Part shown: positions 1 through 25,432 of the stretch, one piece after another
Position numbering within the stretch: the first letter of the stretch is position 1
How the letters are laid out: each line of letters starts with the position of its first letter
Origin: a bacterium
Lineage (GTDB): Bacteria > Patescibacteriota > Minisyncoccia > Phycocordibacterales > JAGLPS01
Assembly (NCBI GenBank): GCA_030690305.1
Contig: JAUYHB010000027.1
Span: 79,670 to 143,669 of the forward strand
DNA length: 64,000 nucleotides
Reading direction: 5' to 3'
Position numbers and translations under genes: made by a program
Notes under the pieces: generated by a model
Database searches by the model: none
What the model was told of the DNA's origin: nothing
Seen by the model: only the letters and a program-made list of their open reading frames with translations

Positions 1-1646
1 TCAACACTATTCTTGTGCTCGTTCAAGAGAGATAGCTTTGTTTCTATTTCTTTTTCCTTGTCGGTAGTGGGTTTGGGTTTTTGTGTGTCTAATTCCCCCT
101 GCTCCTTTTCTAAATCAGCCTTCTCTTTCTTTTTGGTTTCTAAACTAAAAATATCTTCTTCCAAAGAGAAAATATCCTTATTAAGTTCTAAAATATTTCG
201 GCGGCACTCTGCTTTCCGCACCTCTATCCCTTCGGTCTTACGCCTTCTTAATTCTTCAAAAGTGGTTTCACCCAACCTATCAGAAGCAGGTATATGTTGA
301 AAAATTATATCTTCAATTTCATGTTGTAGCTCCTCAAAGTTTTCCGGACGACACCTTTTTTCAATAAAGCTCTGGGAAAGATACTTAATCTTTCTCTTGG
401 GCTGGTAGTTACTAAAATCCTTGCTAATAATAGCGATATCTTGTTCGCCGTTCTTCCAGTAAAGCGTGATTTCACAACCCTCTATCGTTTCAGCAATTTG
501 TTTTGTCGGTATAAGTGCTTTGTATATGAAAGATGCTTGATCTTCCTCATCTTGTATAAAGTCGCCTCCCGCGAAAGCGATAAAATCAGCCAAGGCCGTT
601 TTACCAGAACCCTTTTCTCCTATAACAGAAGAAAGGTTTTCATTCAATAAAATCGCTTCTATTCCAAACCAACTTTTTGAGTTCTTAATCTCAACCTTAT
701 CAATAACTTTTGAAGTATTTTTGTAGGTCGGCGGTAGTTCGCCCATAAAAACTCTTTCACCTGGGTATGGCTCGTAAAGAATTTGTTTTAAGCCGTCATA
801 TATAGGATCGGCTTTAAGCCAAGTAATTTCCTTCAGATTATCTTTGCTATTAACTCGTTTTCCTACCCATTCGTCAAATTGAGAAAACGAATGTGCGTCT
901 GAACCAGAAATTACGGGTTTGGATTTAATTTCTTCCTTGCTATCTTCCAAGCGGTCATTTTTTAAGAAATGTTCGGTATTGCTGGGGTTACCAAAAAACC
1001 CATCGCTAAACTTATCTAACTCATCAGTAATCGTGGCCTTTCTCTTTATCCCTCTTACTTTTCCGTCAATTTGTTCTGTTTCGGCTCTAATTCCGTCATT
1101 GTTTGCGGCTGTAAATATCAATACATAATTTGATATATCTGCCTTACCCCCAAATGTTTTTTCCAATGCTTCGTCTATAAACTCTCGTGTTGTTGTCGCT
1201 TTCTCGTAATCTGATTGATTTGATAATTCTGATGCTGTGATATAGCGACCCTCTCCGACAGTTTTATTTGTATTTAATTTTTGTAAAAAAGTTTTGATTT
1301 TCTGTTCAAGGTTTTCAATCTTCGTATTAAACAATAAATGGATGTTGACTTCCTCCTGTGCTTTGTTAACAACATAGCTGGTGGCTAACTCAACATTCGG
1401 AAAAAATTGTTTTTTTGATTTCGGATATTTGGTCTTAAACTTACTAATAAAAATAAAATAGTTATCGGCTGAAAAATAATCCGTAATGCCAAAAACCGCC
1501 GTATCGGATTCTTCTACCTTTTTACAAAATTCATCCCAAACATCACCATCTTTTTCTTCAAGACGGTATTGGTCATTCTTTTTGGTCTTGGGAGTGTGAA
1601 CATGTAAGTCCCATTTTCTCCAAATTGATCCTCGCGGTGAGTTCAT
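1..1646 (-). CDS. PHP-domain phosphoesterase fused to SMC/AAA-like ATPase (Ppl-like single-protein defence candidate). The N-terminus is present; the C-terminus runs off the window start.
   Basis: Manual minus-strand translation from the ATG at 1644-1646 gives MNSPRGSIWRKWDLHVHTPKT, the PHP H-x-H motif. Downstream are FGITDYF, a Walker A GEKGSGKTALADF about 345 aa in, then K/E-rich coiled coil. There is no stop before position 1. A GAGGT SD sits upstream and the start lies 4 nt after the res stop, so it is co-operonic with mod-res. Confidence 0.5.
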   Translation of the reverse strand, partial: MNSPRGSIWRKWDLHVHTPKTKKNDQYRLEEKDGDVWDEFCKKVEESDTAVFGITDYFSADNYFIFISKFKTKYPKSKKQFFPNVELATSYVVNKAQEEVNIHLLFNTKIENLEQKIKTFLQKLNTNKTVGEGRYITASELSNQSDYEKATTTREFIDEALEKTFGGKADISNYVLIFTAANNDGIRAETEQIDGKVRGIKRKATITDELDKFSDGFFGNPSNTEHFLKNDRLEDSKEEIKSKPVISGSDAHSFSQFDEWVGKRVNSKDNLKEITWLKADPIYDGLKQILYEPYPGERVFMGELPPTYKNTSKVIDKVEIKNSKSWFGIEAILLNENLSSVIGEKGSGKTALADFIAFAGGDFIQDEEDQASFIYKALIPTKQIAETIEGCEITLYWKNGEQDIAIISKDFSNYQPKRKIKYLSQSFIEKRCRPENFEELQHEIEDIIFQHIPASDRLGETTFEELRRRKTEGIEVRKAECRRNILELNKDIFSLEEDIFSLETKKKEKADLEKEQGELDTQKPKPTTDKEKEIETKLSLLNEHKNSV

Positions 1647-1650
1647 AATT

Positions 1651-4344
1651 TTATTTAACTACCTCAAAAATATCCCCCGGCTTTTCTAGCGTCTTAAATT
1701 CCCAATTGCCGAAGTTGCCATTGAGATTTACCGCTCTTACCCACTCTTGAGCCGCCGCCCACTTGGCGTCGTCCTGATCGGTTTTCTGACCCTTTACCTC
1801 CAAGATTAGATAGTGGTTATCCGTAAACTTAATTATGAAATCGGGGAAGTAGGTATGGAGCGAACCTTTCCAAAGATAGTAAATTTCAAAACCGAGATGG
1901 TCGTTTTTAGCCCACGACACCAGCCCCGGAATCCTGTCGCGTTCAAACTCAAACGCCATACTACCTTCCCACTTGCTATCGGCAACGACATGGCTTATCT
2001 GACTTTTTTTGACCGGCTGGGTTGGCTTGCTTGTATACCACACAAACGCACTTGCGGTGCTTCTTACCGGCCGCACAGTGTCAAAGATAGCGACAGGGTC
2101 TTCGGAGCTTGAACTTTTTATAAACTGTCCGAGGTGATCTACAATCTTTTGTAGATTAAGGGAGATAACTATCCGCTTGAGTAATTCTGCGTGCTCAAAC
2201 TGCGGCACTTTAGCGACAAGTTTCTCGGACGCTATGAACTCATCAATTATTTTTAGAAGTTGGCTAACATGACTTGCCGGATTGCCTTCCCAATTTTCCT
2301 TGAACCGCTCCCGAAGCCGGACGGCGGCTTGGAGCTTGAGAGTTTGGAAACGCTTTTCTTCTCCGAACTTCATCAAGTCAAGCTCGGTCAGGCGGGTCAG
2401 GTCCGGCTTTCCGTCAATGACAGGCGCAACTTCTACCACAGTTCGCGCATCCTCGGTTGAAAGCTCAAGCGGCTTTAACTTATTCCAGTCAAGCTCCAAG
2501 AAGTAGTTGAGCTTATAATCAACGCGGAGCACATGAGGCCAGCGAATCTCTAATGTCGCGCGCTCCGCTATCGGCTCAATCTTAGTTTTTGGCACTGGCG
2601 GCTTCGGTGGCTTTCCGGTGTCCTCAACGGGCAGATAAGTAAACGGCACGCCGAAGACAGTTACATACTCCGGTTCGGAAAGATTGCCATAATCAATACG
2701 GCGTAACCCGCGACCGATAACTTGCTCGCATAAAAGTTGGCTCGTGAAAGCACGGACGCCCAAGATGTGCGTTACTGTTTGCGCGTCCCAACCTTCCGAT
2801 AACATATTTACTCCTATGACGCATTGGACTTGTGCGCCGGGCTTTCCCTCTTTGCCGACTGTATTCACTTGCTCCCGAAGTTCCTCGGCAAGCTCGCGTT
2901 TGTTTTTTACAAGCTCCTCGCCCTCCTCGGCCTCAATCTTATCAAGCGCGTCCTGATCAATACGAATTAAACCATCGCCTAACTCTCGCGTTACAATGTG
3001 GCCATTTTTGATGGCGTATTCAATGCGCGCCGCCGTTTCCGTGCGGTTACAAATCATAATCATCACCGGCGGCGTTTTAATAGTAGGACGCAGTTTTTTC
3101 CAGTCGTCTTTTTCTCGCAACCAATCACCGCCCAAAATATCAATCGCGTTTGATAAAAGATCGGGCAACCCCTCGTGTGGCTCGGCGCGGCGGTTCAAAT
3201 CGTCTTTGACTTCGGGGTAAATGTGAAAAAGTTTAGAGCGCAAATCTTTGTTCATATTTACTGAATCATCACGAACCGCAATACGCGGAGTTTTTACCAA
3301 TCCGCTTTCAATTGCGTCGTTTAACCCGAAGTCGCTGACAATCCAAGTGAAAAGCTCCTCGCCACGATTATTGCTTCCGGTTGGACGAAATGGTGTTGCG
3401 GTCAAATCAAACGCTTTTAATACTCCTCGCGCGCGATGGATGCGGTCAATACCGCTAATCCAAATCGTCGCCTTCTCTTGCTCCTCTTTGTCTTCCTCTT
3501 GAGATGGCCGGTGGCAATGGTGGGCTTCGTCGTTGATAATCAAAATATTTTGAGCGTTGCCAATGTCGGGCACAACTCGGCGTGTAAACGCCTCATCGCT
3601 TTCCGGACCTTTCTTTACCACCTTCGGGCCATAGTTCTCATTGACCGGCGCAAGCGTATGCCAGTTCTCAACGACAATTTTTGCTTGTAATAATTCTTGC
3701 CACATTGAGGACGGCACGATGTTGAATTTTTGATAAAAATTGTCTTCTCGCTCCGGTTTCAAAACGCGGAGGCGATCCTTCACAGTTAATCCGGGTGCGA
3801 CAACGAAAATGTTTTTTGTAAAACGGGTATCTGTTGGACTTGCGATCTTATTTAACGCTTGCCACGCAATCAGCATTGACATCACAACTGTTTTACCCGA
3901 GCCAGTAGCCATTTTGAAGGATTGTCTTTGCCAACCTTCCGGCTCGGATGGTAAATCAATGCCTTGCTTTTCGCTTGGGCTTGCCTCGGTAAGCCAAATA
4001 GCAGTTTCAGCCGCCTCAAGCTGGCAGAAGAAAAGCGAATACTCACGCTGTTCTCTATCGCGCCAGTATTCAAGAAGTTTACGGGTCGTGCCGGTAACAT
4101 TGGGATAATTTTCGGCACGCCATTTCTGAACTCGTGAACGAATTTTATTAACCAACTCCAGCTCAACGAACTCACCAAGATCGTCGTTACCATTACGGCC
4201 TACGCCGGATAATTTCCAATATCCTGCTTTCCGTCGCCCATCACGCAATTCAAATTCCTGACTTTCTCGGATATACGCCCAATACCGAGTTGGCTCGGTG
4301 TAGGCATCGTTGATAATCAGTTTGTCTATGCTTTTTTGGCTCAT
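1651..4344 (-). CDS. res: Type III restriction enzyme Res subunit (SF2 helicase plus C-terminal PD-(D/E)xK endonuclease)
   Basis: 897-aa ORF with Walker A MATGSGKTVVM and DEAH box INDEAHHCH. The C-terminus carries a D..EVK nuclease motif (DFIIKFTDNHYLILEVKGQ). The start overlaps the mod stop (ATGA). Confidence 0.8.
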   Translation of the reverse strand: MSQKSIDKLIINDAYTEPTRYWAYIRESQEFELRDGRRKAGYWKLSGVGRNGNDDLGEFVELELVNKIRSRVQKWRAENYPNVTGTTRKLLEYWRDREQREYSLFFCQLEAAETAIWLTEASPSEKQGIDLPSEPEGWQRQSFKMATGSGKTVVMSMLIAWQALNKIASPTDTRFTKNIFVVAPGLTVKDRLRVLKPEREDNFYQKFNIVPSSMWQELLQAKIVVENWHTLAPVNENYGPKVVKKGPESDEAFTRRVVPDIGNAQNILIINDEAHHCHRPSQEEDKEEQEKATIWISGIDRIHRARGVLKAFDLTATPFRPTGSNNRGEELFTWIVSDFGLNDAIESGLVKTPRIAVRDDSVNMNKDLRSKLFHIYPEVKDDLNRRAEPHEGLPDLLSNAIDILGGDWLREKDDWKKLRPTIKTPPVMIMICNRTETAARIEYAIKNGHIVTRELGDGLIRIDQDALDKIEAEEGEELVKNKRELAEELREQVNTVGKEGKPGAQVQCVIGVNMLSEGWDAQTVTHILGVRAFTSQLLCEQVIGRGLRRIDYGNLSEPEYVTVFGVPFTYLPVEDTGKPPKPPVPKTKIEPIAERATLEIRWPHVLRVDYKLNYFLELDWNKLKPLELSTEDARTVVEVAPVIDGKPDLTRLTELDLMKFGEEKRFQTLKLQAAVRLRERFKENWEGNPASHVSQLLKIIDEFIASEKLVAKVPQFEHAELLKRIVISLNLQKIVDHLGQFIKSSSSEDPVAIFDTVRPVRSTASAFVWYTSKPTQPVKKSQISHVVADSKWEGSMAFEFERDRIPGLVSWAKNDHLGFEIYYLWKGSLHTYFPDFIIKFTDNHYLILEVKGQKTDQDDAKWAAAQEWVRAVNLNGNFGNWEFKTLEKPGDIFEVVK

Positions 4345-6839
4345 AATTTTTTGATGACAAACGATTCAATACCTCGGTCGTCAATAATTTTGATGGCAAC
4401 TTTTTTATGTTCGCCCACCTTAAACGGCAGTGATTCAACACCAATAAACGAATCCATTACTTCTTCGTTCACCGCGCCGTTCAAAGTTTTCGCAAGACCA
4501 GTCCAATCCCGCTTTTCATCTTTCATTGGGAAGAAAACTTGAACGGGTAAAATACTTTGCTCGTCGTAATCAGTATCCAACATCCACATCGCAATCCGAG
4601 TGGTATCGCCGGAATCAATCTCGCCCGTAACGGGATTATAGTAATCAAATCCATTAACGCGCACCTTGTATGTGCCGCCTTTGCTTTTAACAACCTCAAT
4701 GTCCGGCTGGCCAATAAGCCAGTAGCTTTGGCTGGACGAACGCTTCTTGCGTAAATCCGAAGTTAGAAGATCAACGCTCATCTGCGCTTTGAGTATGGAA
4801 ACACCCGGCCATTTCATCTCATCAATATCCTTTGACGCTTCGGGGTCAAAATGAAATGCCGCAAAGATGACGAGTTCCGGTTTATCGGCTAAAATGCGCG
4901 CCTCGTTGATAGCTTCCTCTACTTGGCGTTGCTCAAGCGGGCCGTAATCCGGGCCGAAACTGATAACCGCTTTTTTCTGTTTTCCTTTCTCGTCTAAAAT
5001 TTCACCTTCGGCGTGTAAATACTTTGTCCCCGCCATCGGTTCAATACGAGAAAAATTGATGATACTCCCGCCCACGGCTCGGATACCGGACGACTTCAAC
5101 TCGTCGCGCCATACTGCCTGATTCGCTGTTTCTCCGGTGCGCGCAATGTCTTCGCCGGTTGTAGTAACTTTCTGCTGACTTCCGTCAAATGGTTTAACAC
5201 GAAGTCCGGGAACAGCTTCAACTGTAAATGGACTGGCTACACGGACTTTACTTGTGTCAATTACTGGCTGGTCATAAAGAATTTCCTGTTTGTCTAATTC
5301 ATTGTTTGCGATTGATTTAATTGTGATATGAGGAACTTTCCTATATACAAAACCGCTTCCTACTCCTTCGGTTGGATGAGCAAGTTGATAGTGGTCAAAA
5401 TAAGAAGTCATAAGTCGTTGTTTCGCAAGCGTAATAGCAACGCGCGAGGTGTCGCAAGTTATCCAGCGACGACCCCACTGTTCGGCTACATGAGCAGTAG
5501 TGCCGCTTCCGCATGTTGGGTCAAACACTATATCGCTTGGATCAGTAGTCATCAAAATACATCTTTTCAAAATCTCTTTTGATGTTTGAACGGCATAAAT
5601 CTTTTTTAGTTCGCCAACTGTATCAGTCCAAACATTAGTATATTTACTAACTGGAAAATCATCAAAATAATTTACAAATCTTAATGTGTTGCCGAACGCT
5701 ACCAACCGCTTTGCGGCCTCCAATTTTTTCATACCTTCAAGATTGGTCTTCCAACTCCGATTTCTTCCGGGCTTAAAGGTTCTTCCTTCAAATTCATAAT
5801 CAAAAACACAACTTGCTGTTAAACCTGAAGAAACAAGGTCTGCCGAGCTAAATATTTTACTGCCTTTAGGGAGAAGTGAAGGGTTATGTATTTCCTCGGC
5901 CGATAAACTGCGTCGTTCTCCACTTGGAAGGTGAGCATAACCAAACGCTCCTTCGGTTGAATCTTTCTCTTTAAACAGTTGGCGATATTTAATTTTATTT
6001 CTATCCTTCGCATACCAAAGCAGATAGTTAGCAATACCAGTTAGTCCTTTACTTCCAAGTCCACTTGTTGTTCTAAAAGTAATAAGAGAAAAAAAGTTTT
6101 GACTACCGAATACTTCATCAAGTAATTCTCTGACATGGTGGATGTTTTCGTCTCCAATTTGGACAAAAATTGAACCGGAATCGCTTAACAACTCACGAGC
6201 GAGAAGGAAACGATCTTTCAAATAAGAAAGATAAGAGTGTATACCCAACTCCCATGTATCACGAAACGCTTTAATGGTTTCCGGCTCGGATGGTAAATCC
6301 TCATCTCTGTCCTTAACATCTTTACGATTAACGAACGGCTGAAAATTTGAGTTGTATGTTATACCGAAGGGAGGGTCTACATAAATCATCTGAACTTCGC
6401 CAGCCATACCCTCTTTTTGTAGCAAGCTATTCATCACAAGGAGCGAATCACCAGCGATAAGACGGTTCGTCCAATCTTGCGCGTGATGATAAAACTCAAA
6501 CGCCTTACCAATCGTGAGTTTTTTCTCAAAAGCGTCAAAGAGTGTCGCCTGTTGATTGAGTTCTTCTTCTTTCAAAAATGATTTTACAATACGCATAGGA
6601 TCAATGCGCTCGTGAATATGTAAACTCAAATTGCGGACATTGACTTCGTTGCCTTCTTGTTTACCAGCCCAAGAGAGATACGGATCAATATGCGGATCGT
6701 GCGCGTATTTTGTAATGCCATTCAACTTGTCGGTTTGTGATGACACAAGACCGACCGGCGGATTATTCTTTCGCTTTTTATCCGCGTGTGAATATGCCTC
6801 AACTGATATTCTTTTCTTTTTTGATGCTTTGCGTGGCAT
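4341..6839 (-). CDS. mod: Type III R-M Mod subunit, N6-adenine DNA methyltransferase
   Basis: 832-aa ORF with motif IV IYVDPPFGITYN (DPPF) and AdoMet motif I VFDPTCGSGTTAHVAEQ. It sits immediately upstream of and overlaps res. Confidence 0.8.
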   Translation of the reverse strand: MPRKASKKKRISVEAYSHADKKRKNNPPVGLVSSQTDKLNGITKYAHDPHIDPYLSWAGKQEGNEVNVRNLSLHIHERIDPMRIVKSFLKEEELNQQATLFDAFEKKLTIGKAFEFYHHAQDWTNRLIAGDSLLVMNSLLQKEGMAGEVQMIYVDPPFGITYNSNFQPFVNRKDVKDRDEDLPSEPETIKAFRDTWELGIHSYLSYLKDRFLLARELLSDSGSIFVQIGDENIHHVRELLDEVFGSQNFFSLITFRTTSGLGSKGLTGIANYLLWYAKDRNKIKYRQLFKEKDSTEGAFGYAHLPSGERRSLSAEEIHNPSLLPKGSKIFSSADLVSSGLTASCVFDYEFEGRTFKPGRNRSWKTNLEGMKKLEAAKRLVAFGNTLRFVNYFDDFPVSKYTNVWTDTVGELKKIYAVQTSKEILKRCILMTTDPSDIVFDPTCGSGTTAHVAEQWGRRWITCDTSRVAITLAKQRLMTSYFDHYQLAHPTEGVGSGFVYRKVPHITIKSIANNELDKQEILYDQPVIDTSKVRVASPFTVEAVPGLRVKPFDGSQQKVTTTGEDIARTGETANQAVWRDELKSSGIRAVGGSIINFSRIEPMAGTKYLHAEGEILDEKGKQKKAVISFGPDYGPLEQRQVEEAINEARILADKPELVIFAAFHFDPEASKDIDEMKWPGVSILKAQMSVDLLTSDLRKKRSSSQSYWLIGQPDIEVVKSKGGTYKVRVNGFDYYNPVTGEIDSGDTTRIAMWMLDTDYDEQSILPVQVFFPMKDEKRDWTGLAKTLNGAVNEEVMDSFIGVESLPFKVGEHKKVAIKIIDDRGIESFVIKKL

Positions 6840-6843
6840 AAGA

Positions 6844-7056
6844 TTATTTAATTAAATCCTCAATAGGCACGCCTAATGCTTTTGCTACTCGTTCGATATT
6901 TCTAAGGGCCATATTTCTTACACCTCTCTCAATGCCGCTAATGTAGGTTGGGTGTACACCTAAAACCTTGGCGAGGCTGCCTTGAGACATTTCTTTCTTC
7001 AGGCGGATCTCACGAACGCGCTTTCCAAATTTGATTGAGATATCAGGCATGGTCAA
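6844..7056 (-). CDS. XRE-family HTH transcriptional regulator, controller (C-protein)-like, leading the mod-res operon
   Basis: 70 aa with an HTH: LGVHPTYISGIERGVRNMALRNIERVAKALGVPIEDL. It ends 4 nt before the mod start. Confidence 0.6.
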   Translation of the reverse strand: MTMPDISIKFGKRVREIRLKKEMSQGSLAKVLGVHPTYISGIERGVRNMALRNIERVAKALGVPIEDLIK

Positions 7057-7159
7057 AATGTGTTTATTTTCGTTATTATAGCAACCCTTGTAACATTATT
7101 CTATATAGGATTATTATTCTACAAGATGACATTTCCTTGTTTTTTATCAGATTCAAGAT

Positions 7160-7778
<619 letters not shown>

Positions 7779-7818
7779 AAAAGAACTAAATTATTAAACT
7801 TAATAATTTAGTTCTTTT
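7779..7818. terminator. Perfect 19-bp inverted repeat hairpin, bidirectional rho-independent terminator
   Basis: AAAAGAACTAAATTATTAA-ac-TTAATAATTTAGTTCTTTT has T-runs on both strands. It separates the GC-rich element from the small minus-strand ORF at 7849-8064. Confidence 0.6.
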
Positions 7819-7848: not shown

Positions 7849-8064
7849 CTATCTCACAAAAGTAGTAAAGGTGAGTTTAAAGCTTTCAAACCTTTTTTTC
7901 TTAATCTTTTCTGCATCACGAAGATACTTTTCCCCTTGCTTTATGACCCATTTCTCATCAGCATAAGCATCGTGAAAAGATTGGCTTAGAGAATCCAAAA
8001 ACTCCATTTCTTCTTTCTCATCTTTGCTGGTTTTCTCTCGCTTGACTCTAGTCATTGATATCAC
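7849..8064 (-). CDS. Small hypothetical protein (71 aa), K/E-rich
   Basis: ORF directly downstream of 8086-9399 on the same strand; low-GC island. Confidence 0.3.
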   Translation of the reverse strand: MISMTRVKREKTSKDEKEEMEFLDSLSQSFHDAYADEKWVIKQGEKYLRDAEKIKKKRFESFKLTFTTFVR

Positions 8065-8085
8065 CTCCTGAGTAATTTTTTAGAA

Positions 8086-9399
8086 TTAAATTGTCAACAA
8101 ACTTATACTTCTATCTAATCGTATTCTGAAATTATAAAACATACTTGATGAAGATTGCAAATGCCTCGTTGGGTCAGCAATTATACCCACCATCATTTCC
8201 CTGCCGTTTTTCGATAATACAACCTCACAAAACCATAAATAATGCGGCAAATTTGACTTTACCATTTCCTCAAACCTACTTTTGTCCTTGTCAGATAGAG
8301 TCTTTTTCTTGGGGTTCATTAGAAAATTCTTTAATATACTATTATCCACAATTAAGAATCTTTCTGATTTTACCTCATAACCCTCTTTAAGAAATACACT
8401 TTTTACAAAACGTACATAATTTTTCTTCATATTTGGAAAAGGGATAAAAACTTTTTCCATTTCTGGGACTATCATATACCCATTTGGTTTTATATAATCT
8501 TCGATAGCTTCCCAATTTACTAAATCTACAAAAGATTTGCCTTTCCTAGTATCACCATCCAAATCTTTTTGTTGGAAAAAAGCACCAGAATCATCGTATA
8601 CTAAATATTTTCTTCGGTTGTCTATTCCAAGCGTATGCCCAATTACAGTAATAACATGATCGTTTGACGTTAAAATTATGGGCAATTTACTTTCTATATA
8701 ACTATCCGCCCATTCTCTAAAATATTCTTTATACTTGTTAAAATGTATACTTGAAATTGGAATTTTGGCATTATTAAAAATTTCTATCATGTGATAAATA
8801 GTAATACCCTCGCTGGAGATCATTTTAGTCTTAAACGAGTATCCGCCAACAATGTCAGAAAGTTTTATCAAATTATATTCCAATGTTCTTCTCACAAATT
8901 TTGTAACCATAGCTATAGCAGCATGGGCGCATATTGTGACAACACCATCTTGAGAAAAAAATGGAAAAGTATGAATAATTAATTCTTTTCCACAAATATG
9001 AACAGTTTTTTTATAAGTCATTACATATACATCTTCTCCATACGTCCTCCTAAATTCATGAGCTAACATCTTCCAATTCGGATATATAAATGACAAACTG
9101 GCAGACACCTCACCGATGGGCCGTATATTCGCAAATCCAAGATAGAAATCCGATTCAATAACCTTATCTTTGAAGAAGTGAATTCTTGCTACAAAAGGCT
9201 TGAATTGATATGTTGTGTTTATATAATGCAAAGAAACCATTTCCTTCCATTCTCTCTCGATATACTCATCTTCTAATATAAAAAACTTGGCGTATTTGAT
9301 AATCCTATCTAACCTCGATATAAGATATCTTTTAATTAGTTCTTCAGGGATATTTAGTTTCTTAGCAAGTTCTTGGGATAGTAAGGCTATATGTTGCAT
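8086..9399 (-). CDS. Hypothetical protein with a C39-like (papain-fold) cysteine peptidase domain
   Basis: 437 aa. VTICAHAAIAMV resembles the C39 Cys motif CGxAxLAM. It is followed by His (HVITVIGHTLG) and Asp (YLVYDDSG) in the Cys-His-Asp order. Local GC is very low. Confidence 0.4.
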   Translation of the reverse strand: MQHIALLSQELAKKLNIPEELIKRYLISRLDRIIKYAKFFILEDEYIEREWKEMVSLHYINTTYQFKPFVARIHFFKDKVIESDFYLGFANIRPIGEVSASLSFIYPNWKMLAHEFRRTYGEDVYVMTYKKTVHICGKELIIHTFPFFSQDGVVTICAHAAIAMVTKFVRRTLEYNLIKLSDIVGGYSFKTKMISSEGITIYHMIEIFNNAKIPISSIHFNKYKEYFREWADSYIESKLPIILTSNDHVITVIGHTLGIDNRRKYLVYDDSGAFFQQKDLDGDTRKGKSFVDLVNWEAIEDYIKPNGYMIVPEMEKVFIPFPNMKKNYVRFVKSVFLKEGYEVKSERFLIVDNSILKNFLMNPKKKTLSDKDKSRFEEMVKSNLPHYLWFCEVVLSKNGREMMVGIIADPTRHLQSSSSMFYNFRIRLDRSISLLTI

Positions 9400-9674
9400 T
9401 GGTAAACCTACTTACATTTTATAGTTAGTGACTATAATTTACACAACGGATTACCCGCGCTCTTGGCACAAAGTAATCACATTTAATGAATTTTGGGCAA
9501 GCTATATTATATTAAAAATAAAAAATCTTCACTTTTGCGAGTGAAGATTCAGGATTATTGCACAGTAATAATTTTCTTCCTCAAATTTAGCCCTTAGAGT
9601 ATGCATTCTTATATACTAAAATCTATAATAACTCAACTAATTTTTATTAGGGCAATGTGCACATAAAAAGACAA

Positions 9675-9709
9675 CCCCGACTGAATCTTTAGAAAAGATT
9701 AGCCGGGGG
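9675..9709 (-). terminator. Imperfect hairpin plus T-tract, terminator for the EEP gene
   Basis: CCCCGACTGAATCTT...AAGATTAGCCGGGGG is followed on the minus strand by TTGTCTTTTTATGT. Confidence 0.4.
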
Positions 9710-9829
9710 AAATATAATTTAATTTTAATACCAGCATTCAATCCTGCCAGTTAAATTTTTGTATTAGTTTAACTATAGCACGTATTTCATATTTCCATAT
9801 CTCTTTCTTGCTTATTTTTAGAGGATATT

Positions 9830-10873
9830 CTATCTATGCTCAAAATTATCGGCATCTCTGTTATTCCACAGCAACACAGTTAACGGCAAGTGATCAGAGG
9901 CATATGCGCCATATAACCAAATCCCTTTATTTTCCCTACCCTTAATCTTCTTAGGAATTTTAACTCCCTGTGGCGTTTGCAAATCCTCTTCCCACGCTCT
10001 ATGCACATGCGCCGAGTCTGGAACGATATCCTCATCGCTATAAATGTCCTGATACCACATCGTGTCATATTGGCTCTTGGATAGCCTGCCCCTCGCCTTA
10101 TCAAGTGTTGTCACGTCTTTCGATATTAAGACGTGCTTTATGTTGGGCAGACTTTTAAAAGAGTCCCACTCTTTCTTGTCTACGTTCGTATTGAAGTCGC
10201 CCATGAGGAAAACGTCATTTTGGCTCTCGTCTGAATCCTGTACCGTCTTGTATACGAAAACAAGTCTTCCTATTTCGTCTTTTCTCCATTGTGCGGCGGG
10301 CGAAGCGGCATGAATGGTAATAATGGTAAAGTCGAAATTGCCGTCTTTTGCTCTAAATGAGGCAATAAAAGGCTCTCTGTCAAACTGCCTTTCTTGATCG
10401 TTCAATCCGGACATTTTATTTTCAGATTCATTCCACACATGGGCCGAATCTTTAACAAGTTCAATTTTTGACTTTCTGTAAAGGAAAGCATAATACTCGA
10501 AGGTACTGAATGCCTTGCTTTTTTCAGCGTTTGCCGTTCCATTCGGCTCGGGACTGACAACATAGTCCCAATCTTCACCGAGATGAGCAACTATCTCCTG
10601 CAAGGCTTCTATACCCTTTCCGCCTAAAGGGTTATTTTTTGTGGCGCCGGTATTCATGACTTCTTGAATCGCAACGATGTCATAATTCTTGAGGATTATT
10701 GCTGCATTTTTCACTTGATACGGATTGTCTTTGCCGAGCTTCTCGATGTTAAAGGTGCCGATCCGGATTTGAGTAGTTGAGCTAAGGGAAACAGAAGGAT
10801 CAGAGTAGCAAACAGTATTTGGAGAAACAAAAAGGAGGGCAAGGAAAATGATCGTGCATATAAATTTACGCAT
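9830..10873 (-). CDS. Secreted endonuclease/exonuclease/phosphatase (EEP, DNase I-like) family protein
   Basis: N-terminal signal peptide MRKFICTIIFLALLFVSPNTVC. EEP motifs IRIGTFNIEKLG and YDIVAIQEV. Confidence 0.6.
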   Translation of the reverse strand: MRKFICTIIFLALLFVSPNTVCYSDPSVSLSSTTQIRIGTFNIEKLGKDNPYQVKNAAIILKNYDIVAIQEVMNTGATKNNPLGGKGIEALQEIVAHLGEDWDYVVSPEPNGTANAEKSKAFSTFEYYAFLYRKSKIELVKDSAHVWNESENKMSGLNDQERQFDREPFIASFRAKDGNFDFTIITIHAASPAAQWRKDEIGRLVFVYKTVQDSDESQNDVFLMGDFNTNVDKKEWDSFKSLPNIKHVLISKDVTTLDKARGRLSKSQYDTMWYQDIYSDEDIVPDSAHVHRAWEEDLQTPQGVKIPKKIKGRENKGIWLYGAYASDHLPLTVLLWNNRDADNFEHR

Positions 10874-14331: not shown

Positions 14332-15075
14332 TTAAAACATCCCTCCCACTTGGACTGCCAATCTGTCCGCTATGGCCGCGCAGGCTTTCGCTCTGTCGAT
14401 GTTCGTCTGCTTTGCCGTGACCACGATGCGCGTCCTATATTCCTGATGTCCTGAATCAACTTGCCTCTCCGACGTAAAGCTGGTCGCGGAGCCGTAGGTG
14501 GTATTGGTCTTCATCATGCCTTTGACTCCCCCCTCGACTCTTTCTTTGATTTGAATGTCTACCGCGCCCAAATAGGTATCGACATGGATCATCGACCCCA
14601 CGACTCCGCCGATGACAGACCCCACAAGGGTGCCTGCCACTCCTCCGGCAACGGGGCCTCTCCAGCCGCCTCTGACATTGGAACCCGCCAACCCGCCGCC
14701 AAAGCCTCCGACAAGCATGCCCTCGGCGGTCAAGTCCTGCTTTTGCGCGCCCATATAAAGGAGATTGGCCTGAAGGATATGACCTGCTTTGCTCACATCG
14801 TTAGTTACGACATACCCTCGGGAGGAAATTTTGCTTTTTAACAGCTCCGCGAAGTCTATCTCCTGAAAATCCGAGGTATTGGTGACCCGGACAAAAATGC
14901 TGTTGTTCTTGGCGAGACTTTCGGGATCGATGAATATCGTCTCCGACATTTGTGCGGAGAGGGTCATCTGCCGGTTGCTTATCGCTTCTATGGTCCCGGC
15001 GCATCCGGAAAAAGTAACTGCTACAGAGACCAATAAAAAACATACGACTGCGAATCTCGGAATTTTGTAATACAT
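14332..15075 (-). CDS. traT: TraT complement-resistance / surface-exclusion lipoprotein homologue
   Basis: 247 aa with lipobox FSGC. It aligns by eye with F-plasmid TraT: QMSETIFIDPES vs QMSETIWLEP, ILQANLLYMGAQKQDL vs IQANVLKADKMDL, and the Gly-zipper segment YRTRIVVTAKQTNI vs YQTRVVSNANKVNL. Confidence 0.65.
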   Translation of the reverse strand: MYYKIPRFAVVCFLLVSVAVTFSGCAGTIEAISNRQMTLSAQMSETIFIDPESLAKNNSIFVRVTNTSDFQEIDFAELLKSKISSRGYVVTNDVSKAGHILQANLLYMGAQKQDLTAEGMLVGGFGGGLAGSNVRGGWRGPVAGGVAGTLVGSVIGGVVGSMIHVDTYLGAVDIQIKERVEGGVKGMMKTNTTYGSATSFTSERQVDSGHQEYRTRIVVTAKQTNIDRAKACAAIADRLAVQVGGMF

Positions 15076-19564: not shown

Positions 19565-22500
19565 TTAACCCCTGCTTGCTAAAAATTCCTTATTAACATC
19601 TAAATGTTCCTTTATTGATTGTTCAACACTGTCCGCGCATCTTTTCAATAAATTACTTAGAGCTCCCAGAGAAGTTTTTTTCTGCATCTCTTCGTAAATT
19701 CGCTTTTTTTCCAAAAGGGCTGGTGGAGCTTGACCACCAGAAGAAGACCATCCACCCTCAGGATATGTTTTCGAAAATAACAAAGAACGAATTGTCTTTA
19801 AATTATCACTCTTGATTCCTTCTTCAGAGATTCTTAAGAATAAATCAACAGTTTCACCGTTTAGTGGGAGGTATTGAGCACAAATCAATATCTCGTTAAT
19901 TTGCTTCTTTTGAACCAGTTCATTAATATATTCTGTTATATAAAGCTGATTTGTTTTATTGTTACGGGCGAATAAAATTGGCTTTAGTATTTTCTGAACG
20001 TCATAATATTCCACTCCTTCAGAATAAATATTATGCCATTCCAGAGATTGGGAAAGAAATTTCCTATAATCCTCGTAGGATTGAATTGATCCGCTCAAAT
20101 GTTTTATTCCATCATAAGGTATCGCCTCGAATTCGGCTCGTTTGTTATGCGTCTTAGATTCCTTAAGGCGATAATCAATGAAAGCAATTAATTCATCCAC
20201 ATTTCCAATACAAAATTCCACAATTTCCTGATCGTGCCATTCCAGCTCAGGCCTATCTTTTATTAAATCGTAGAGGGCTTTGACTAACTTGTTGATATCT
20301 TTGTGCTTCTTAAAATCATCCTTTAGTGAGTGGGTAAGAAATGAAACGTTGTCAACAAACTGATTATCGATATTTTTAATTTCATTTAACGCCAATAATA
20401 ATAATCCCATCAAGTCATCAACATTCTTATTTTCCTTGAAAACGAAATAAAGGTTTCGCACTACTTTGCTTATTATTTTGTCATTACCGCACCCAATGAG
20501 TTTTCTTGACCAATCCGATCGTTCTCTTGGTTGCTTTATTGTAATCAAATGTAACAATGTGCTGATTCGCTCATCTGTCGCCTTATTAATATCTGACAGT
20601 ATCTCGTTAGCTAACCGTTGCAGATGATTAGGATCAAGGTTCGTTAATGCACCGTCAATTTCCATTTTGAAATAATCGGGTATTAATTGCCATAATGTAG
20701 TGTTATCCCGAATTTCTCTAAAAGCGTCTGAATTCAACTCAACCCAACAATAAATAAAAATGGGATATAGATGTGAATTTAAAGGTTCAATCTTCTTGGC
20801 AAAACGATTTACAAATTTTGCTATCAACTCGGCAGAGCTATATTCCTGATTTAATTGTTGGACAGGCCTTGAAAAATCATGTGATTTCAAATACCATTTT
20901 TTTGACATTACATTCTCAACTAACCACGGCCATTTATTAGCTTGGGGAGCATCCTTTGAAACTTCTTCAAAACTCTGGACAATATCTAACCGAGAGGAAA
21001 AATATCGAAAAAGCTCGTATTCAGGACTTCGAGGAATACTTTTTAATAACTCAGTAATCTTTTCTATTCCCGGAGCATCTTGGGCCCACCAGTGCAAGAA
21101 CAAATCCTCTATGTCGCTCAACAGACGAAAATCTGTATTAGGATGAATCAAGCGGCCAATGTCATCAATAATTTTAATTTTTTCTTGAACAAATCTTTCG
21201 GCTAAAGGTAGCTGAGAAGGTGAGACATGGCCCATCCTCGTTTTGCCAATGTCGCTTACAACGTCAATTGCGCAAAGCTGGTACTCAATATTGGCATGTG
21301 TAAGCAATTTATCTAATAACGCCATTGCTGCATCTCTCATTTGTAATACTTTAGGATTATTGGGCAGAGGTCTTTCACCAAATTCCATTTTATCCAAATA
21401 AGAGCGGCTATATTCGTGGGTTGCTGCTAGAACTTCTGACAATGCTGATTTGACCATGTCCGCTCTATTTTTATTCGGCTCATCCAACCACTTCTCCATT
21501 AGATTCAGCATCTCAACAATAGAATCAACATCATTTCTTAAAGGAGAAACGCAATCTTTAATTAAAGTTAACGGTTTATAGTTGTCATATGTTCCCTTCA
21601 TTTCTAATGAATATAATCTTTCAATTAAGCATAAAATTTCATTTCGGTATTTGTGGCTTCTGATTAAACCATCAATGGCCGGGCCATAATCATCTGTAGA
21701 AAGCAATACAACGCGATAATCATCGGGATAAAGGAAGCTAGTTTCTTGGGGAGGGGGAAAGTCAAAATATGTATTTATTAAATCAAGACAACCTTTGGGT
21801 ATAAATTCGACAACATTTTTTAACCATTCCAGTCTTTCTCTTCTTTCAGTCCCCGAAGTATCTTTAGCCTTGTCGATCCACTCGTTTATAAATTCCTCTA
21901 ACATAGCTGAAATAATGTTAGCTTGACCATATTTAAATGTGGCTCCCAAATTAACAAAGATATTTTTCGAAAACAGAGGCATCCATTGCAAAACTAGGTT
22001 TTTCAAGTACTCCTTACTTAACTGTTCTAGCTTATACAATAAGTAAACATCGCCTCGCATGTCAGGTGAAAATCGAATTGCGCGGCCGACTTGCCGTAAT
22101 ATATTAGACTGAACCAGCCGATCAATGGCCTTTTTTATAAGATCACTACTTTTATTTAACTGTTTAGCTATTTCGTCAATCGTTCCCTGATTATCCTTAT
22201 TAAAAGGCACAATACATGCTAGATTTAAAAGAAGTTCATCCGCGCCGTCTTGAAAAACATCAGCAAGTGACTTCTTTGCATCAACAATAATATCTTCAAT
22301 TATTTCAGCTTTAATTTTAGAAAAGTCTTTAATCCCATCCCCCCTAATACGCTTTCCGATAAGAACAATAAAGTATGGATTAGGAAAGTCATGCACAATG
22401 ATTTCCTCATCGTTAACTCTATCTTTATTTGCACAGGCACGAAGCAGTTTCAATAAATCATCCTTAGGCCACTCATTAATTTTCAGAACAGTGGTAAACC

Positions 22501-23416
22501 CGCTCGCCCTAAACTCTTGTATTCTATCTTGCAAAATATAAATTCCAGATGTCCTTAAGCTAAGCACAACTTTGATATCCACACCGCTTTTAGTTAAAAA
22601 GGCCAAAAGAGGATTTAAAGTATTTAAATCACGGTCTGCATCGTCAAGAATTAATAAGTATTTCTGTTTAGGGTCAATTTCTTCTTGTATGGCAGCTTCA
22701 AAAGATCGATAACCCGTTTTAAGCATCCATGGCTGCCGAGTGGGGTCATACTCATATGCCAAAGTTGCTATTTCTCGCAGCAAATGCGATTTGCCAAAGC
22801 CGCCGGGTGCGTGAACAACAAATAATTGGTGCTTATCTGAAGCCATAAACTTTTGAAATTCTTCTATATAAGATTTAAATGCAGTGATCTCATGGGCAGG
22901 GACATCAATTAACTGCTTCTCTAAATCATCAAAATATAGACTGGCGGGGACTAATAACGGATGCTGTGGATCACCGAAATAAGAATTTCTAAGAAAGGGC
23001 TGTCGCTCAATTCTAATTTTTAGATTTTCTCTATGCCAAACATGTAGTGATTTTATTTCCTTGGGTTTTAAATTTTCCAAAGCCTTGACTTGGTCAACCC
23101 TTAATTCTGCAGTGGTAGCAATGCGAAGGTGCTCAACCTTGTTTTTAATTGCCTTGTCGATTTCCTTACTAATTTCCGACTTTAAATGACCCTCTGCTTC
23201 ACTAAAATTCTTTTGCGTCCATTTTGATTGAATGGAAAATAAACCCTCTAAATTCTCGCTAGGGTAAAACCCTTCATAATAACCATCCCAGCCGTTATCA
23301 AAACCAATGTAAGGACTCGAAGGAATAAAAGCTGGCGAGTTACATTCAATTGCGAATAAGTGATTAACCAATCTTTGAAAATCTTTTTCGTTAGTTATTT
23401 TTCCCAGATCTACCAT
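19565..23416 (-). CDS. Giant STAND-type P-loop NTPase with an N-terminal Mrr-like restriction-endonuclease motif and a ~900-aa C-terminal helical region (Avs/AVAST-like antiviral NTPase candidate)
   Basis: 1283 aa. N-terminus GFDNGWDGYYEG...GLFSIQSKW matches the Mrr_cat DxGxDG...QxK pattern. Walker A HAPGGFGKSHLL. Walker B YLLILDDADRD (hhhhDD). The remainder is long and alpha-helical. Confidence 0.5.
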   Translation of the reverse strand: MVDLGKITNEKDFQRLVNHLFAIECNSPAFIPSSPYIGFDNGWDGYYEGFYPSENLEGLFSIQSKWTQKNFSEAEGHLKSEISKEIDKAIKNKVEHLRIATTAELRVDQVKALENLKPKEIKSLHVWHRENLKIRIERQPFLRNSYFGDPQHPLLVPASLYFDDLEKQLIDVPAHEITAFKSYIEEFQKFMASDKHQLFVVHAPGGFGKSHLLREIATLAYEYDPTRQPWMLKTGYRSFEAAIQEEIDPKQKYLLILDDADRDLNTLNPLLAFLTKSGVDIKVVLSLRTSGIYILQDRIQEFRASGFTTVLKINEWPKDDLLKLLRACANKDRVNDEEIIVHDFPNPYFIVLIGKRIRGDGIKDFSKIKAEIIEDIIVDAKKSLADVFQDGADELLLNLACIVPFNKDNQGTIDEIAKQLNKSSDLIKKAIDRLVQSNILRQVGRAIRFSPDMRGDVYLLYKLEQLSKEYLKNLVLQWMPLFSKNIFVNLGATFKYGQANIISAMLEEFINEWIDKAKDTSGTERRERLEWLKNVVEFIPKGCLDLINTYFDFPPPQETSFLYPDDYRVVLLSTDDYGPAIDGLIRSHKYRNEILCLIERLYSLEMKGTYDNYKPLTLIKDCVSPLRNDVDSIVEMLNLMEKWLDEPNKNRADMVKSALSEVLAATHEYSRSYLDKMEFGERPLPNNPKVLQMRDAAMALLDKLLTHANIEYQLCAIDVVSDIGKTRMGHVSPSQLPLAERFVQEKIKIIDDIGRLIHPNTDFRLLSDIEDLFLHWWAQDAPGIEKITELLKSIPRSPEYELFRYFSSRLDIVQSFEEVSKDAPQANKWPWLVENVMSKKWYLKSHDFSRPVQQLNQEYSSAELIAKFVNRFAKKIEPLNSHLYPIFIYCWVELNSDAFREIRDNTTLWQLIPDYFKMEIDGALTNLDPNHLQRLANEILSDINKATDERISTLLHLITIKQPRERSDWSRKLIGCGNDKIISKVVRNLYFVFKENKNVDDLMGLLLLALNEIKNIDNQFVDNVSFLTHSLKDDFKKHKDINKLVKALYDLIKDRPELEWHDQEIVEFCIGNVDELIAFIDYRLKESKTHNKRAEFEAIPYDGIKHLSGSIQSYEDYRKFLSQSLEWHNIYSEGVEYYDVQKILKPILFARNNKTNQLYITEYINELVQKKQINEILICAQYLPLNGETVDLFLRISEEGIKSDNLKTIRSLLFSKTYPEGGWSSSGGQAPPALLEKKRIYEEMQKKTSLGALSNLLKRCADSVEQSIKEHLDVNKEFLASRG

Positions 23417-23485: not shown

Positions 23486-25432
23486 TCACACCATTTTGAC
23501 ACCAAAACTTTCAAGCCATCGCTGGATTACGCCTAAATGCTTTTCCCCCAGCCCTCGGTTACCTGTTTCCCACCTTGCCAACGTCCCCGGATCAACGCCT
23601 AAACGCCTCGCCAGTTGTGCTTGGGACAGGCCTAGGGTCTTCCGACAATGTATGATTTGCTCTGTGAGTGTCTGGGCCTCTGGCAATGGATTGTAGCCTA
23701 AGAATTCAATGATCTTGGGAATAAAGCGGATTTCGGGTTCGGTAAGCCCTAGTTCCCAGTGGCAGATGGTCATTTCATCGGCGCCAATTTGTGCGGCCGC
23801 CTGTTTCTGGAACAGCCCAAGGTCTAACCTGCGCTTCTTAACATGGTCTCCGATGGTGGTAAGGCTCTTGGGATAGGCCGGATCAGGCGGCTTTTGGGCG
23901 GTACGCCTGATATGGCAAAAAGGCAACGCAAGGATGTGGTTCTGAAGCTCTTTGGCCACTTTCTTAGTGGAGGGCAAATAAAAGAGGTTGACTTCCACTT
24001 CATCCTTCCCAATGACAATGCTTTCCGTAATGTTCTCTATAATCTTGCGTTTCTCCGCAAATTCAAGCCGGGACCAGTTCCCGTACAACCCCTTTCCCTC
24101 AGCAAGGATTTCATCCGATGAGAGGTAGTTAATCTTCAAGAAGTCGATTTCGGCCTGAACGCGCGGCATCTCATCTTCCAGTTGCTTTTCTTTCTCCTCC
24201 AAGGGTAAGTAGCGCTTGCCGAACCCTTCCTTGGTGATCTGTTTGGCCATATACAGGTCATATGTTTCATCCATTTCCTTTTTAATCTTCTGATACTCCC
24301 TCTCCAAGGCCTGCATCAGTTCCGCTTTGTCCTTGATGGTGTCTTCCGCCCCGTGAAGGTACTTCTCTATATCCTCAGGGGACATGAAGAACCCTTTCAG
24401 TTCCTCAAGGTAGATTTCCTCAAGGTCGGAAATAGTGATTTTGTTTCGGCACTTGCGGCATACGTATTTGTTGGGGTAATTGGAAAGGACGTACATCTGA
24501 CCCTTGCAGGCGCAGACCGCATATCCGGCAAACAACTGTACGGCCGTTCTCGATACCCGTTTTCGTGACTTTCCCTGTTCCTCAAGAATGTGATTGCATC
24601 GCTGCCACAGTTCGGGAGAAATGATGGGCTCGACTTCCGTGAAAACCCAGTCTTTCTCCGGCTTTACTTCCCAATGCCTCTTTCTATCAAGCGTTTTACT
24701 GTAATTGGCGCGGTGCAGTCCTTTAGCAGTGGAGTCTCTCAAGAGCCGGTCAACGGTCGTGTCCGAGAATTTTGAATTGTTCCTCGTTCGATAACCGGCT
24801 TCGTTCAAAAGACGCGCAACAACCTTCTTTCGCCTGTGTTCCAAGAAAAGCTCGTACATCTGTTTTCGAATCGGCACCTCGTTCGGAGCTGGGATAAGTT
24901 TCTTGTCCTTCCACTGATAGCCAAAAGGCGCCGCTCCCCCCAAGGGTTTCCCCAATTTTGCCCTGATGGGCACGGAGGCAGCGACGCGTTCCGCAATTTC
25001 ATCTCGTTCCCATTGGGCAAGCGCACTAATCATGGTATACAGGAGGCGTCCGGCGGGACTGCTTGTATCGATTGATTCTTGCAAGCTGATCAAGTCAGCA
25101 TTGCACTCTCTAAAGATTTCGGCGAATTCCAAAAGTTCTTTGGTGTTCCGTGCAAGCCGAGCGAGTTTGGAAAAAATAAGGCCGGTGATCGTTCCCTTGC
25201 GAACGTCGCTTAACATTCTCTGAGTTTCTGGATGATTGAAGACGGTCTTCCCGCTCACGGCTTCAAGATGATACACTGTTTTTACGTCCCACCCCTTCGA
25301 TTCGGCGTAATAGCTGGCTCGCTTTTCATGGTGCTCTGGGCTCTCTCCTTTTGCCTGATCTTCGGTCGATACTCTGATCCATATGCCGACTTGCTTTTTT
25401 AATCCATTTCCCTCATGTACATTCTTAGGCAT
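23486..25432 (-). CDS. Large serine recombinase (resolvase/invertase catalytic domain plus recombinase domain) with two extra C-terminal XRE-like HTH domains
   Basis: 648 aa. N-terminus VGIWIRVSTEDQAKGES carries the catalytic Ser. C-terminal HTH-like segments are LTTIGDHVKKRRLDLGLFQKQAAAQIG and TLGLSQAQLARRLGVDPGTLARWETG. Confidence 0.7.
   Translation of the reverse strand: MPKNVHEGNGLKKQVGIWIRVSTEDQAKGESPEHHEKRASYYAESKGWDVKTVYHLEAVSGKTVFNHPETQRMLSDVRKGTITGLIFSKLARLARNTKELLEFAEIFRECNADLISLQESIDTSSPAGRLLYTMISALAQWERDEIAERVAASVPIRAKLGKPLGGAAPFGYQWKDKKLIPAPNEVPIRKQMYELFLEHRRKKVVARLLNEAGYRTRNNSKFSDTTVDRLLRDSTAKGLHRANYSKTLDRKRHWEVKPEKDWVFTEVEPIISPELWQRCNHILEEQGKSRKRVSRTAVQLFAGYAVCACKGQMYVLSNYPNKYVCRKCRNKITISDLEEIYLEELKGFFMSPEDIEKYLHGAEDTIKDKAELMQALEREYQKIKKEMDETYDLYMAKQITKEGFGKRYLPLEEKEKQLEDEMPRVQAEIDFLKINYLSSDEILAEGKGLYGNWSRLEFAEKRKIIENITESIVIGKDEVEVNLFYLPSTKKVAKELQNHILALPFCHIRRTAQKPPDPAYPKSLTTIGDHVKKRRLDLGLFQKQAAAQIGADEMTICHWELGLTEPEIRFIPKIIEFLGYNPLPEAQTLTEQIIHCRKTLGLSQAQLARRLGVDPGTLARWETGNRGLGEKHLGVIQRWLESFGVKMV

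Follow-up and report, generated by a model that had tools for sequence, protein, structure and literature searches.

A TrlF-family PHP-ABC ATPase gene at the end of an apparent Type III restriction-modification operon, and its recurrence behind other restriction operons

The 64,000-nucleotide stretch of DNA analysed here (the window; positions 79,670 to 143,669 of the forward strand of contig JAUYHB010000027.1, assembly GCA_030690305.1, from a bacterium of the Patescibacteriota) opens with four open reading frames (ORFs), all on the minus strand, which fill positions 1-7056 and encode a small helix-turn-helix (HTH) protein, the Mod and Res subunits of a restriction-modification (R-M) system and a large protein of the TrlF family (Table 1). 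ORFs were called directly from the sequence, in window coordinates, and the last of them, trlF, is open at the window edge. An earlier note on this DNA had proposed that the four genes form one operon, in which a controller gene and a Type III R-M pair are followed by a fusion of a PHP phosphoesterase with an ATPase, thought to resemble the Ppl defence protein. The gene junctions agree with the operon: read directly, 4 nt separate the stop codon of the HTH gene from the mod ATG, mod and res overlap by the 4 nt ATGA (4341-4344), just as the note had it, and the res stop codon TAA and the trlF ATG are separated by AATT, again a gap of 4 nt. No minus-strand terminator-like or promoter-like site was found at 1600-1800 by a consensus scan, which is a crude one (its site totals did not exceed those of shuffled sequence). 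With such short junctions and neither a terminator nor a promoter predicted, the HTH gene, mod, res and trlF apparently constitute a single minus-strand operon with no visible terminator before trlF. The Shine-Dalgarno sequence that the note had given to the last gene proved to be weak; the sole GAGG sits ~15 nt upstream of the ATG, where it is poorly placed for this start, and translational coupling to res is therefore likelier. The operon is a mosaic, because GC content steps down from 0.44-0.51 over mod and res to 0.34-0.38 over trlF.

Mod matches the PADLOC model MTase_III (PDLC03632, 2.9e-159) and Pfam N6_N4_Mtase (6.4e-33), and its motifs stand in the order of the beta class, with motif IV (VDPPFG, aa 154-159) before motif I (DPTCGSGTT, aa 440-448). 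Res scores 980 bits against the NCBIfam model NF046055 (BPTD_3080 family restriction endonuclease; curated cut-off 800 bits), aligns to 2-963 of its 970 positions, carries the SF2 helicase motifs MATGSGKT, NDEAHH and VIGRGLRR (Pfam ResIII, 1.1e-09) and has a C-terminal PD-(D/E)XK motif (PDF...LEVKG), with a Pfam TnsA-like endonuclease match at 828-871; its match to PADLOC REase_III is weak (2.1e-11). As judged by models, motifs and gene order the mod-res pair is a Type III R-M system, and the Mod and NF046055 scores bear out the earlier assignment. Enzymes of Type III require ATP and two unmethylated sites in inverse orientation, and cut ~25-27 bp away from one of these. An exact-sequence look-up returned no record of an identical Res.

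The HTH gene heads the operon, and its product matches Pfam HTH_3 (1.3e-15) and PADLOC Control_protein (PDLC03665, 1e-22), the latter in keeping with the C-protein-like gene that had been proposed for the head of the R-M genes. ATG 7050 is the more likely start, in preference to TTG 7056. Most relatives of the window's R-M system are without an HTH gene. The TATAAT hexamer upstream of the gene has no good -35 element and was not called by the consensus scan. Beyond it lies an imperfect inverted repeat with arms of 13 nt (7087-7099 and 7113-7125), which are 77% complementary, and a central palindrome at 7095-7114; its position fits a candidate C-box.

The N-terminal part of the last gene product contains the PHP motif DLHVHT (residues 13-18) and the metal-ligand motifs GITDYF, NVELA, NIHLLF and SGSDAHS, and residues H17, D56, E86, H103, D250 and H252 are conserved across 25 aligned sequences (the window and 24 homologues). 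Because Pfam PHP gave no match to the fragment at E<0.01, the PHP fold was set by structure prediction. In the AlphaFold2 model of the fragment (mean pLDDT 78.6) the N-terminal domain is of alpha/beta type, and residues 463-547 form long helices that are predicted to make up a coiled coil. A Foldseek search with the N-terminal domain returned the solved PHP nucleases and phosphoesterases RNase AM (9etk and 7ug9, target-normalised TM-score 0.63), 3e0f and the PHP domain of Pol III alpha (4iqj). Pfam found in the fragment an SMC_N-type P-loop alone (residues 315-412), which includes the Walker A motif GEKGSGKT, and SMC heads were matched in the PDB. The N-terminal PHP domain and the SMC-like ATPase with coiled coil that had been read from the sequence are thus upheld, whereas the label of an AAA ATPase is not, the ATPase being of the ABC/SMC type rather than AAA+. 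As had also been anticipated, the C-terminal half of the protein lies outside the window: the TrlF model is covered up to position 514 of 944, and ~400 residues, including the ABC signature, Walker B and the D and H loops, fall beyond position 1. The closest TrlF (P0001, 76% identical, on a 2.6-kb contig) has the signature, Walker B and H-loop, as do the full-length homologues in the alignment.

NCBIfam keeps three distinct models, TrlF, Spaf_1101 and Ppl, with cut-offs of 350 bits for TrlF (NF045780) and 1000 bits for Ppl (NF042955). Of the 944 positions of NF045780 (TrlF family AAA-like ATPase), the window fragment, cut by the window edge, aligned to 1-514 and reached 270.7 bits (E 4e-80). 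Nine full-length relatives, R-M-linked ones included, scored 494-699 bits on TrlF and 72-121 bits on Ppl. The relatives are 920-1050 aa long and one of them, P0092, carries the NCBI name TrlF family. PADLOC Ppl (PDLC02208) did not match the window fragment; on full-length relatives it matched no more than the last ~100-140 residues in nearly all (50-105 bits), and the NCBIfam Ppl match in relatives was confined to model positions ~745-882. Membership of Ppl is ruled out by both sets of models, and by these profiles the last gene is best placed in the TrlF family, a sister family of Ppl with common architecture. What stood of the earlier Ppl assignment was therefore the architecture (PHP, ABC ATPase and coiled coil), not the family. 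Weak PADLOC matches of the TrlF ATPase head were to AriA/AriAB (PARIS), HEC-01A and PtuA, and PrrC and RloC models were absent from the PADLOC matches of the fragment and its relatives.

Ppl (PplA) is the nearest point of comparison; Gao et al. in 2020 reportedly presented it as a single-gene anti-phage system. The two families share a length of ~900-1000 aa, an N-terminal PHP nuclease followed by an ABC ATPase with a coiled-coil insertion, homology over the C-terminal ~120 ATPase residues, and a place among defence genes or on plasmids. They differ in that the window's trlF is operonic with an R-M system and Ppl stands alone. Ppl of E. coli, to which the established mechanism is confined, is an NTP-inhibited 3'-5' single-stranded DNA exonuclease activated by DNA 3'-OH ends (PMC12904381), a mechanism for which PMC13434339 cites Xu et al., Mol Cell 2026. 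TrlF itself takes its name from the temperature-restriction locus trlR-trlF-trlG of Photorhabdus laumondii, where growth restriction at 36 C maps to trlG and trlF is given no function (PMC7554251).

Table 1. Positions of the genes, domains and upstream elements in the window.
Feature	Coordinates	Strand	Description or basis
HTH gene	6844-7056	-	Xre-type, C-protein-like controller, 68-70 aa; Pfam HTH_3, PADLOC Control_protein
TATAAT, -10-like hexamer	7075-7080	-	~20-25 nt before C-gene start; sequence read directly
Imperfect inverted repeat, candidate C-box operator	7087-7125		just upstream of TATAAT box
mod	4341-6839	-	Type III beta-class N6/N4 DNA methyltransferase, 832 aa
res	1651-4344	-	Type III restriction subunit, 897 aa, BPTD_3080 family
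trlF, 5' part	1-1646	-	548 codons from ATG 1646; ORF leaves window
trlF, predicted PHP metal-dependent phosphoesterase/nuclease domain	732-1646	-	~aa 1-305; AlphaFold2, Foldseek, conserved ligands
trlF, N-terminal lobe of ABC/SMC-type ATPase head	259-719	-	Pfam SMC_N, PDB SMC heads, alignment
trlF, Walker A (GEKGSGKT)	597-620	-	residues 343-350; sequence, alignment
trlF, Q-loop (YLSQ)	366-383	-	sequence, alignment
trlF, start of predicted coiled-coil insertion	1-258	-	AlphaFold2 helices; ORF leaves window
TraT	14332-15075	-	conjugative-element gene
STAND NTPase	19565-23416	-	1283 aa
Serine recombinase	23486-25432	-	with C-terminal HTH
Type IV coupling protein	25443-28517	-	

The gene context of TrlF was read in two samples. 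In a broad sample of 80 loci from species-representative genomes, a Type III mod-res pair stood directly upstream of trlF on the same strand in five (L001, L002, L025, L032 and L033), and other R-M genes were linked to trlF in L049 (Type II), L068 (Type IIG) and L026 (Type I, with an OLD-like ATPase). The second sample covered the window's own clade (19 loci whose TrlF is at least 38% identical to that of the window, with gene context read on the contig), and here trlF directly follows a co-directional restriction operon in 12 of the 19. The operon upstream is of Type III in six (the window, L001, L002, L090, L175 and L178), of Type I in four (L170, L171, L172 and L173), of Type IIG with an HKD-Snf2 helicase in one (L174), and combines an EcoRI-type methylase with GmrSD/HNH in L081-L084, which were counted as one; the other seven (L085, L176, L177, L003, L004, L005 and L021) have no R-M link. 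L178 holds an R-M system of the same family as the window's (Res 68%, Mod 61% and TrlF 55% identical). R-M genes and trlF are closely spaced: the two overlap in L170 and L002 and are 3-5 nt apart in L172, L173 and L175. R-M-linked trlF genes also occur outside the clade, behind Type III systems in L025, L032, L033 and L146 and in L049, L068 and L026, and in every linked case trlF lies 3' of the R-M genes on the same strand. The Type III-linked TrlFs fell at at least six separate places in a neighbour-joining tree (no bootstrap support), and this scatter suggests repeated independent joining.

These data bear on two suggestions of the earlier note. It had held the physical coupling of such a gene to a Type III R-M system to be an undescribed arrangement, and we found no paper on it: the literature searched describes neither R-M operons that recurrently end in trlF nor a cargo slot behind BPTD_3080-family Type III systems, TrlF as a recurrent cargo is absent from the literature found on TrlF, Ppl and PHP, and no paper there mentions both TrlF and phage. 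The coupling recurs elsewhere, is not confined to Type III and is not obligatory. The note had also suggested a composite or cooperating defence module. As trlF of the window's clade is often the last gene of a restriction operon, which is suggestive and short of proof, we read the locus as most likely a co-transcribed two-layer defence operon in which Mod/Res and TrlF would cooperate, and we rate this reading at a little under an even chance.

From the R-M side, the locus was compared with 80 from metagenomes, in which Res shows 53-98% identity to that of the window. The mod-res pair is kept in nearly all of them, and a TrlF-like gene directly follows res in L090 and L146 only. A conserved third gene of this R-M family was ruled out, as the genes after res almost all differ. 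Ten large genes after res were tested: eight fit models of known or candidate defence genes (Shedu SduA, TIR/PDC-S66, pAgo at 509 bits, an AriAB/PtuA-like ABC ATPase, Dsr1-like, PDC-M30A, RmrA-like and PDC-S19), one encodes a serine recombinase and one is without a match. Several of the genes after res begin no more than 20 nt from its end. By locus, the slot holds Shedu SduA in L099, L150 and L161, a TIR protein in L098, L100 and L101, pAgo in L115, the ABC ATPase in L096, the Dsr1-like protein in L162, PDC-S19 in L127, the RmrA-like protein in L119, the serine recombinase in L091 and, in L163, a 501-aa protein that matches no model. Because the genes after res differ and mostly match defence models, the 3' end of the window's Type III R-M family is, on gene content, an exchange site for defence cargo.

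Three close relatives whose Res is 97-98% identical (L087, L088 and L089) lack trlF and cease to be homologous to the window at the stop codon of res; in the alignment as read by eye, this codon is followed in L088 and L089, and probably in L087, by a hairpin rich in GC and a run of T. In L090, with a Res 97% identical, the sequence agrees with the window across the junction and for ~55 nt into trlF, after which amino acid identity drops to 35%. Its TrlF-like gene is split by ~650 nt (region 4050-4800), for which a group II intron was considered and rejected (Rfam gave no match, and the insert does not resemble the intron upstream of the window's operon, described below). The insert is probably that of an insertion sequence (IS), since its opposite strand resembles a fragment of a DDE transposase by eye, and the L090 trlF copy is probably a pseudogene. 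The lower GC of the window's trlF, and the L090 locus that keeps the junction with a different trlF allele, indicate that the attachment of trlF to the R-M genes is modular and recent.

TrlF could on these grounds be, like Ppl, a single-gene defence sufficient in itself, here an autonomous passenger in the cargo slot which uses the R-M promoter and has no interaction with Mod or Res. We regard this as a real possibility, if a somewhat doubtful one. It would account for the changing, mostly defence-related genes close behind res, for near-identical R-M modules that are without trlF, for the GC step at the res/trlF junction and for the TrlF genes of other clades, most of which have no adjacent R-M system or lie on plasmids beside type IV secretion genes. 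However, the 12 of 19 linked loci of the window's clade span four kinds of R-M system with very short junctions, for which a single shared insertion site is hard to accept, and an invariable place 3' of the R-M genes on the same strand speaks against a mere passenger as well.

Under the two-layer reading, a single regulated transcript would give rise to both layers of defence. Mod/Res would cleave unmodified incoming DNA as the first; as the second TrlF, if it acts as Ppl does, would engage DNA ends through its ATPase and coiled coil, with release of the PHP nuclease, and restriction breaks would become entry points for degradation and not for repair or recombination. TrlF might also act alone on ends from other sources. 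Cooperation at restriction-made DNA ends is plausible by analogy with Ppl. A further-reaching proposal is that TrlF would be a dedicated restriction partner, a DNA-end-sensing PHP exonuclease/ABC-ATPase recruited as last gene by any R-M type, which would destroy restricted DNA (replacing RecBCD-type degradation in carrier lineages) or fire when restriction is blocked; this we consider rather unlikely.

Several points weigh against cooperation of TrlF with the R-M system. Cooperation with Res is argued from gene order and from analogy with Ppl, which is of a different family, and a part for TrlF in phage defence would likewise follow from the Ppl analogy. The 12 of 19 come from a small, hand-picked sample without a matched control, and ~70 of the 80 loci of the broad sample have no R-M gene directly upstream of trlF. 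The slot after res also holds Shedu, TIR, pAgo, Dsr1-like and other defence genes, and adjacency could mean no more than that a cargo site is shared. The window does not reach the C-terminal, catalytic half of the ATPase. Type III enzymes leave short 5' overhangs, and Ppl is reported to sense 3'-OH overhangs. In the only genetic study, the phenotype of the Photorhabdus locus is temperature restriction and was mapped to trlG, not trlF (PMC7554251).

In PrrC and RloC an ABC ATPase is fused to a nuclease; both are genetically associated with Type I/III restriction loci, where they form a second defensive line. The gene for PrrC lies within the EcoprrI Type I locus, and RloC, the 'restriction-linked ORF', contains a Rad50-like coiled coil. 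TrlF resembles them as an ABC-ATPase-nuclease linked to restriction operons, in its clade at the frequency given above, and it might similarly guard the R-M system, silent while that system is intact and firing its PHP nuclease, in an abortive or back-up reaction, once a phage anti-restriction factor has disabled the system. We consider such a guard improbable. It would suit a gene linked to Types I, IIG and III and not to one cleavage chemistry, and the weak matches of the ATPase head are all to sensor-type ABC ATPases, a class reviewed in defence (bioRxiv 10.1101/2024.01.29.577857). The domain order of TrlF is, however, the reverse of that of PrrC and RloC, with PHP first, and the effector is an N-terminal DNA/RNA phosphoesterase and not an anticodon nuclease; no homology to either protein was detectable, nor any match to their models. 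Many TrlF genes have no R-M system to guard, and contact between TrlF and R-M proteins is purely hypothetical.

Mre11-Rad50 and SbcCD process DNA ends with a phosphoesterase nuclease and an SMC-like ABC ATPase with coiled coil. TrlF mirrors this make-up, a likeness which would favour an end-processing model for it, and TrlF could by the same token be a non-immune repair or plasmid factor, with SbcCD/Mre11-Rad50-like end processing and only incidental proximity to R-M genes. The families differ in that Mre11-Rad50/SbcCD has two subunits, a calcineurin-like nuclease instead of PHP and a housekeeping role in repair, and the likeness is one of architecture only. Plasmid records with TrlF numbered 353, of which 240 were of conjugative plasmids; on one annotated plasmid a Type I R-M system adjoins trlF, and another trlF ends a type IV secretion operon. 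This frequency on conjugative plasmids agrees with a plasmid role, as does the Photorhabdus phenotype, which is temperature restriction and not phage resistance (PMC7554251). Defence genes (R-M, GmrSD, toxin-antitoxin pairs and OLD-like ATPases) nonetheless make up the overwhelming majority of the neighbours of TrlF, its sister family Ppl is experimentally validated, and rapid allele turnover at a fixed junction together with the IS-disrupted L090 copy is typical of defence genes. A repair or plasmid factor is the account to which we give very little weight.

Extra defence genes in or after restriction operons are an established theme, with PrrC, RloC, DarTG and embedded systems as examples. 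DarTG sits in a Type I R-M system controlled by RptR (PMC12255303), and 'embedded' HEC/PDC defence systems have been described (bioRxiv 10.1101/2024.01.29.577857). The window shares with these a regulator-headed operon with an exchangeable extra gene, at a site that behaves as a recombination hotspot; it differs in that the known cases lie inside Type I, BREX, DISARM and Hma systems and the window's trlF is appended after a Type III res. TrlF is a curated family of ~1000 aa, common on plasmids and conjugative elements, whose function has so far been predicted by kinship. Its kinship to Ppl and the habit of the window's clade of closing Types I, IIG and III operons make that function testable, and raise the question whether an end-sensing nuclease-ATPase amplifies or backs up restriction. 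A dedicated partner, if real, would be a new class of R-M accessory beside PrrC and RloC, and if the coupling were mere hitch-hiking the locus would be no more than a usual stretch of defence island carried by a mobile element. The slot after res in the window's Type III family is in itself usable for finding new defence genes.

The trl operon of Photorhabdus shares with the window the TrlF protein family and a small regulator gene at the operon head, and differs from it in having no mod or res and in the downstream trlG (AlbA_2 + HATPase_c_4). In the Yersinia ruckeri plasmid pYR3, fragments of an R-M methylase lie between trlR and trlF (PMC7554251). Photorhabdus TrlR (PMC7554251) and E. coli RptR (PMC12255303) are both 79-aa regulators that head operons with restriction genes, and they may be one family; the window's Xre-type HTH protein differs from both. 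Small ORFs before trlF in the genome loci were considered as TrlR-like regulators and dismissed as spurious translations, with the exception of an HTH ORF directly preceding trlF in L005 (L005_U1), to which the window HTH protein is 32% identical. Operons with R-M genes and trlF in relatives of the window's (601-2724 in L178; L081-L084) start with an HTH_17/MerR-type gene and a GmrSD_N protein. In L178 GmrSD_N is fused to AlbA_2 (Schlafen-like), a domain also present in Photorhabdus TrlG, which hints at a wider connection between TrlF and AlbA_2. A 251-aa gene directly follows trlF in L002 (7475-8230) and L172 (7228-7983), and that of L172 matches Pfam PDDEXK_1.

As the window encodes TraT, a serine recombinase and a coupling protein at 14-28 kb (Table 1), the operon of R-M genes and trlF is cargo of an integrative and conjugative element or a plasmid. 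The operon is preceded, immediately before the promoter region of the C gene, by an ORF-less compact group II intron in the same orientation (7150-7800, minus strand). Rfam placed its domains 1-4 at 7689-7384 (140 and 73 bits) and its domains 5-6 at 7229-7158 (34.9 bits, slightly below the gathering score), and no copy of it was present in the other loci fetched. Further on is a low-GC stretch at 8000-10000 (GC 0.31-0.33), which contains a 437-aa ORF (8086-9399) without a match in Pfam, NCBIfam or PADLOC; this ORF is followed by a gene for an MnuA-like membrane nuclease at 9830-10873.

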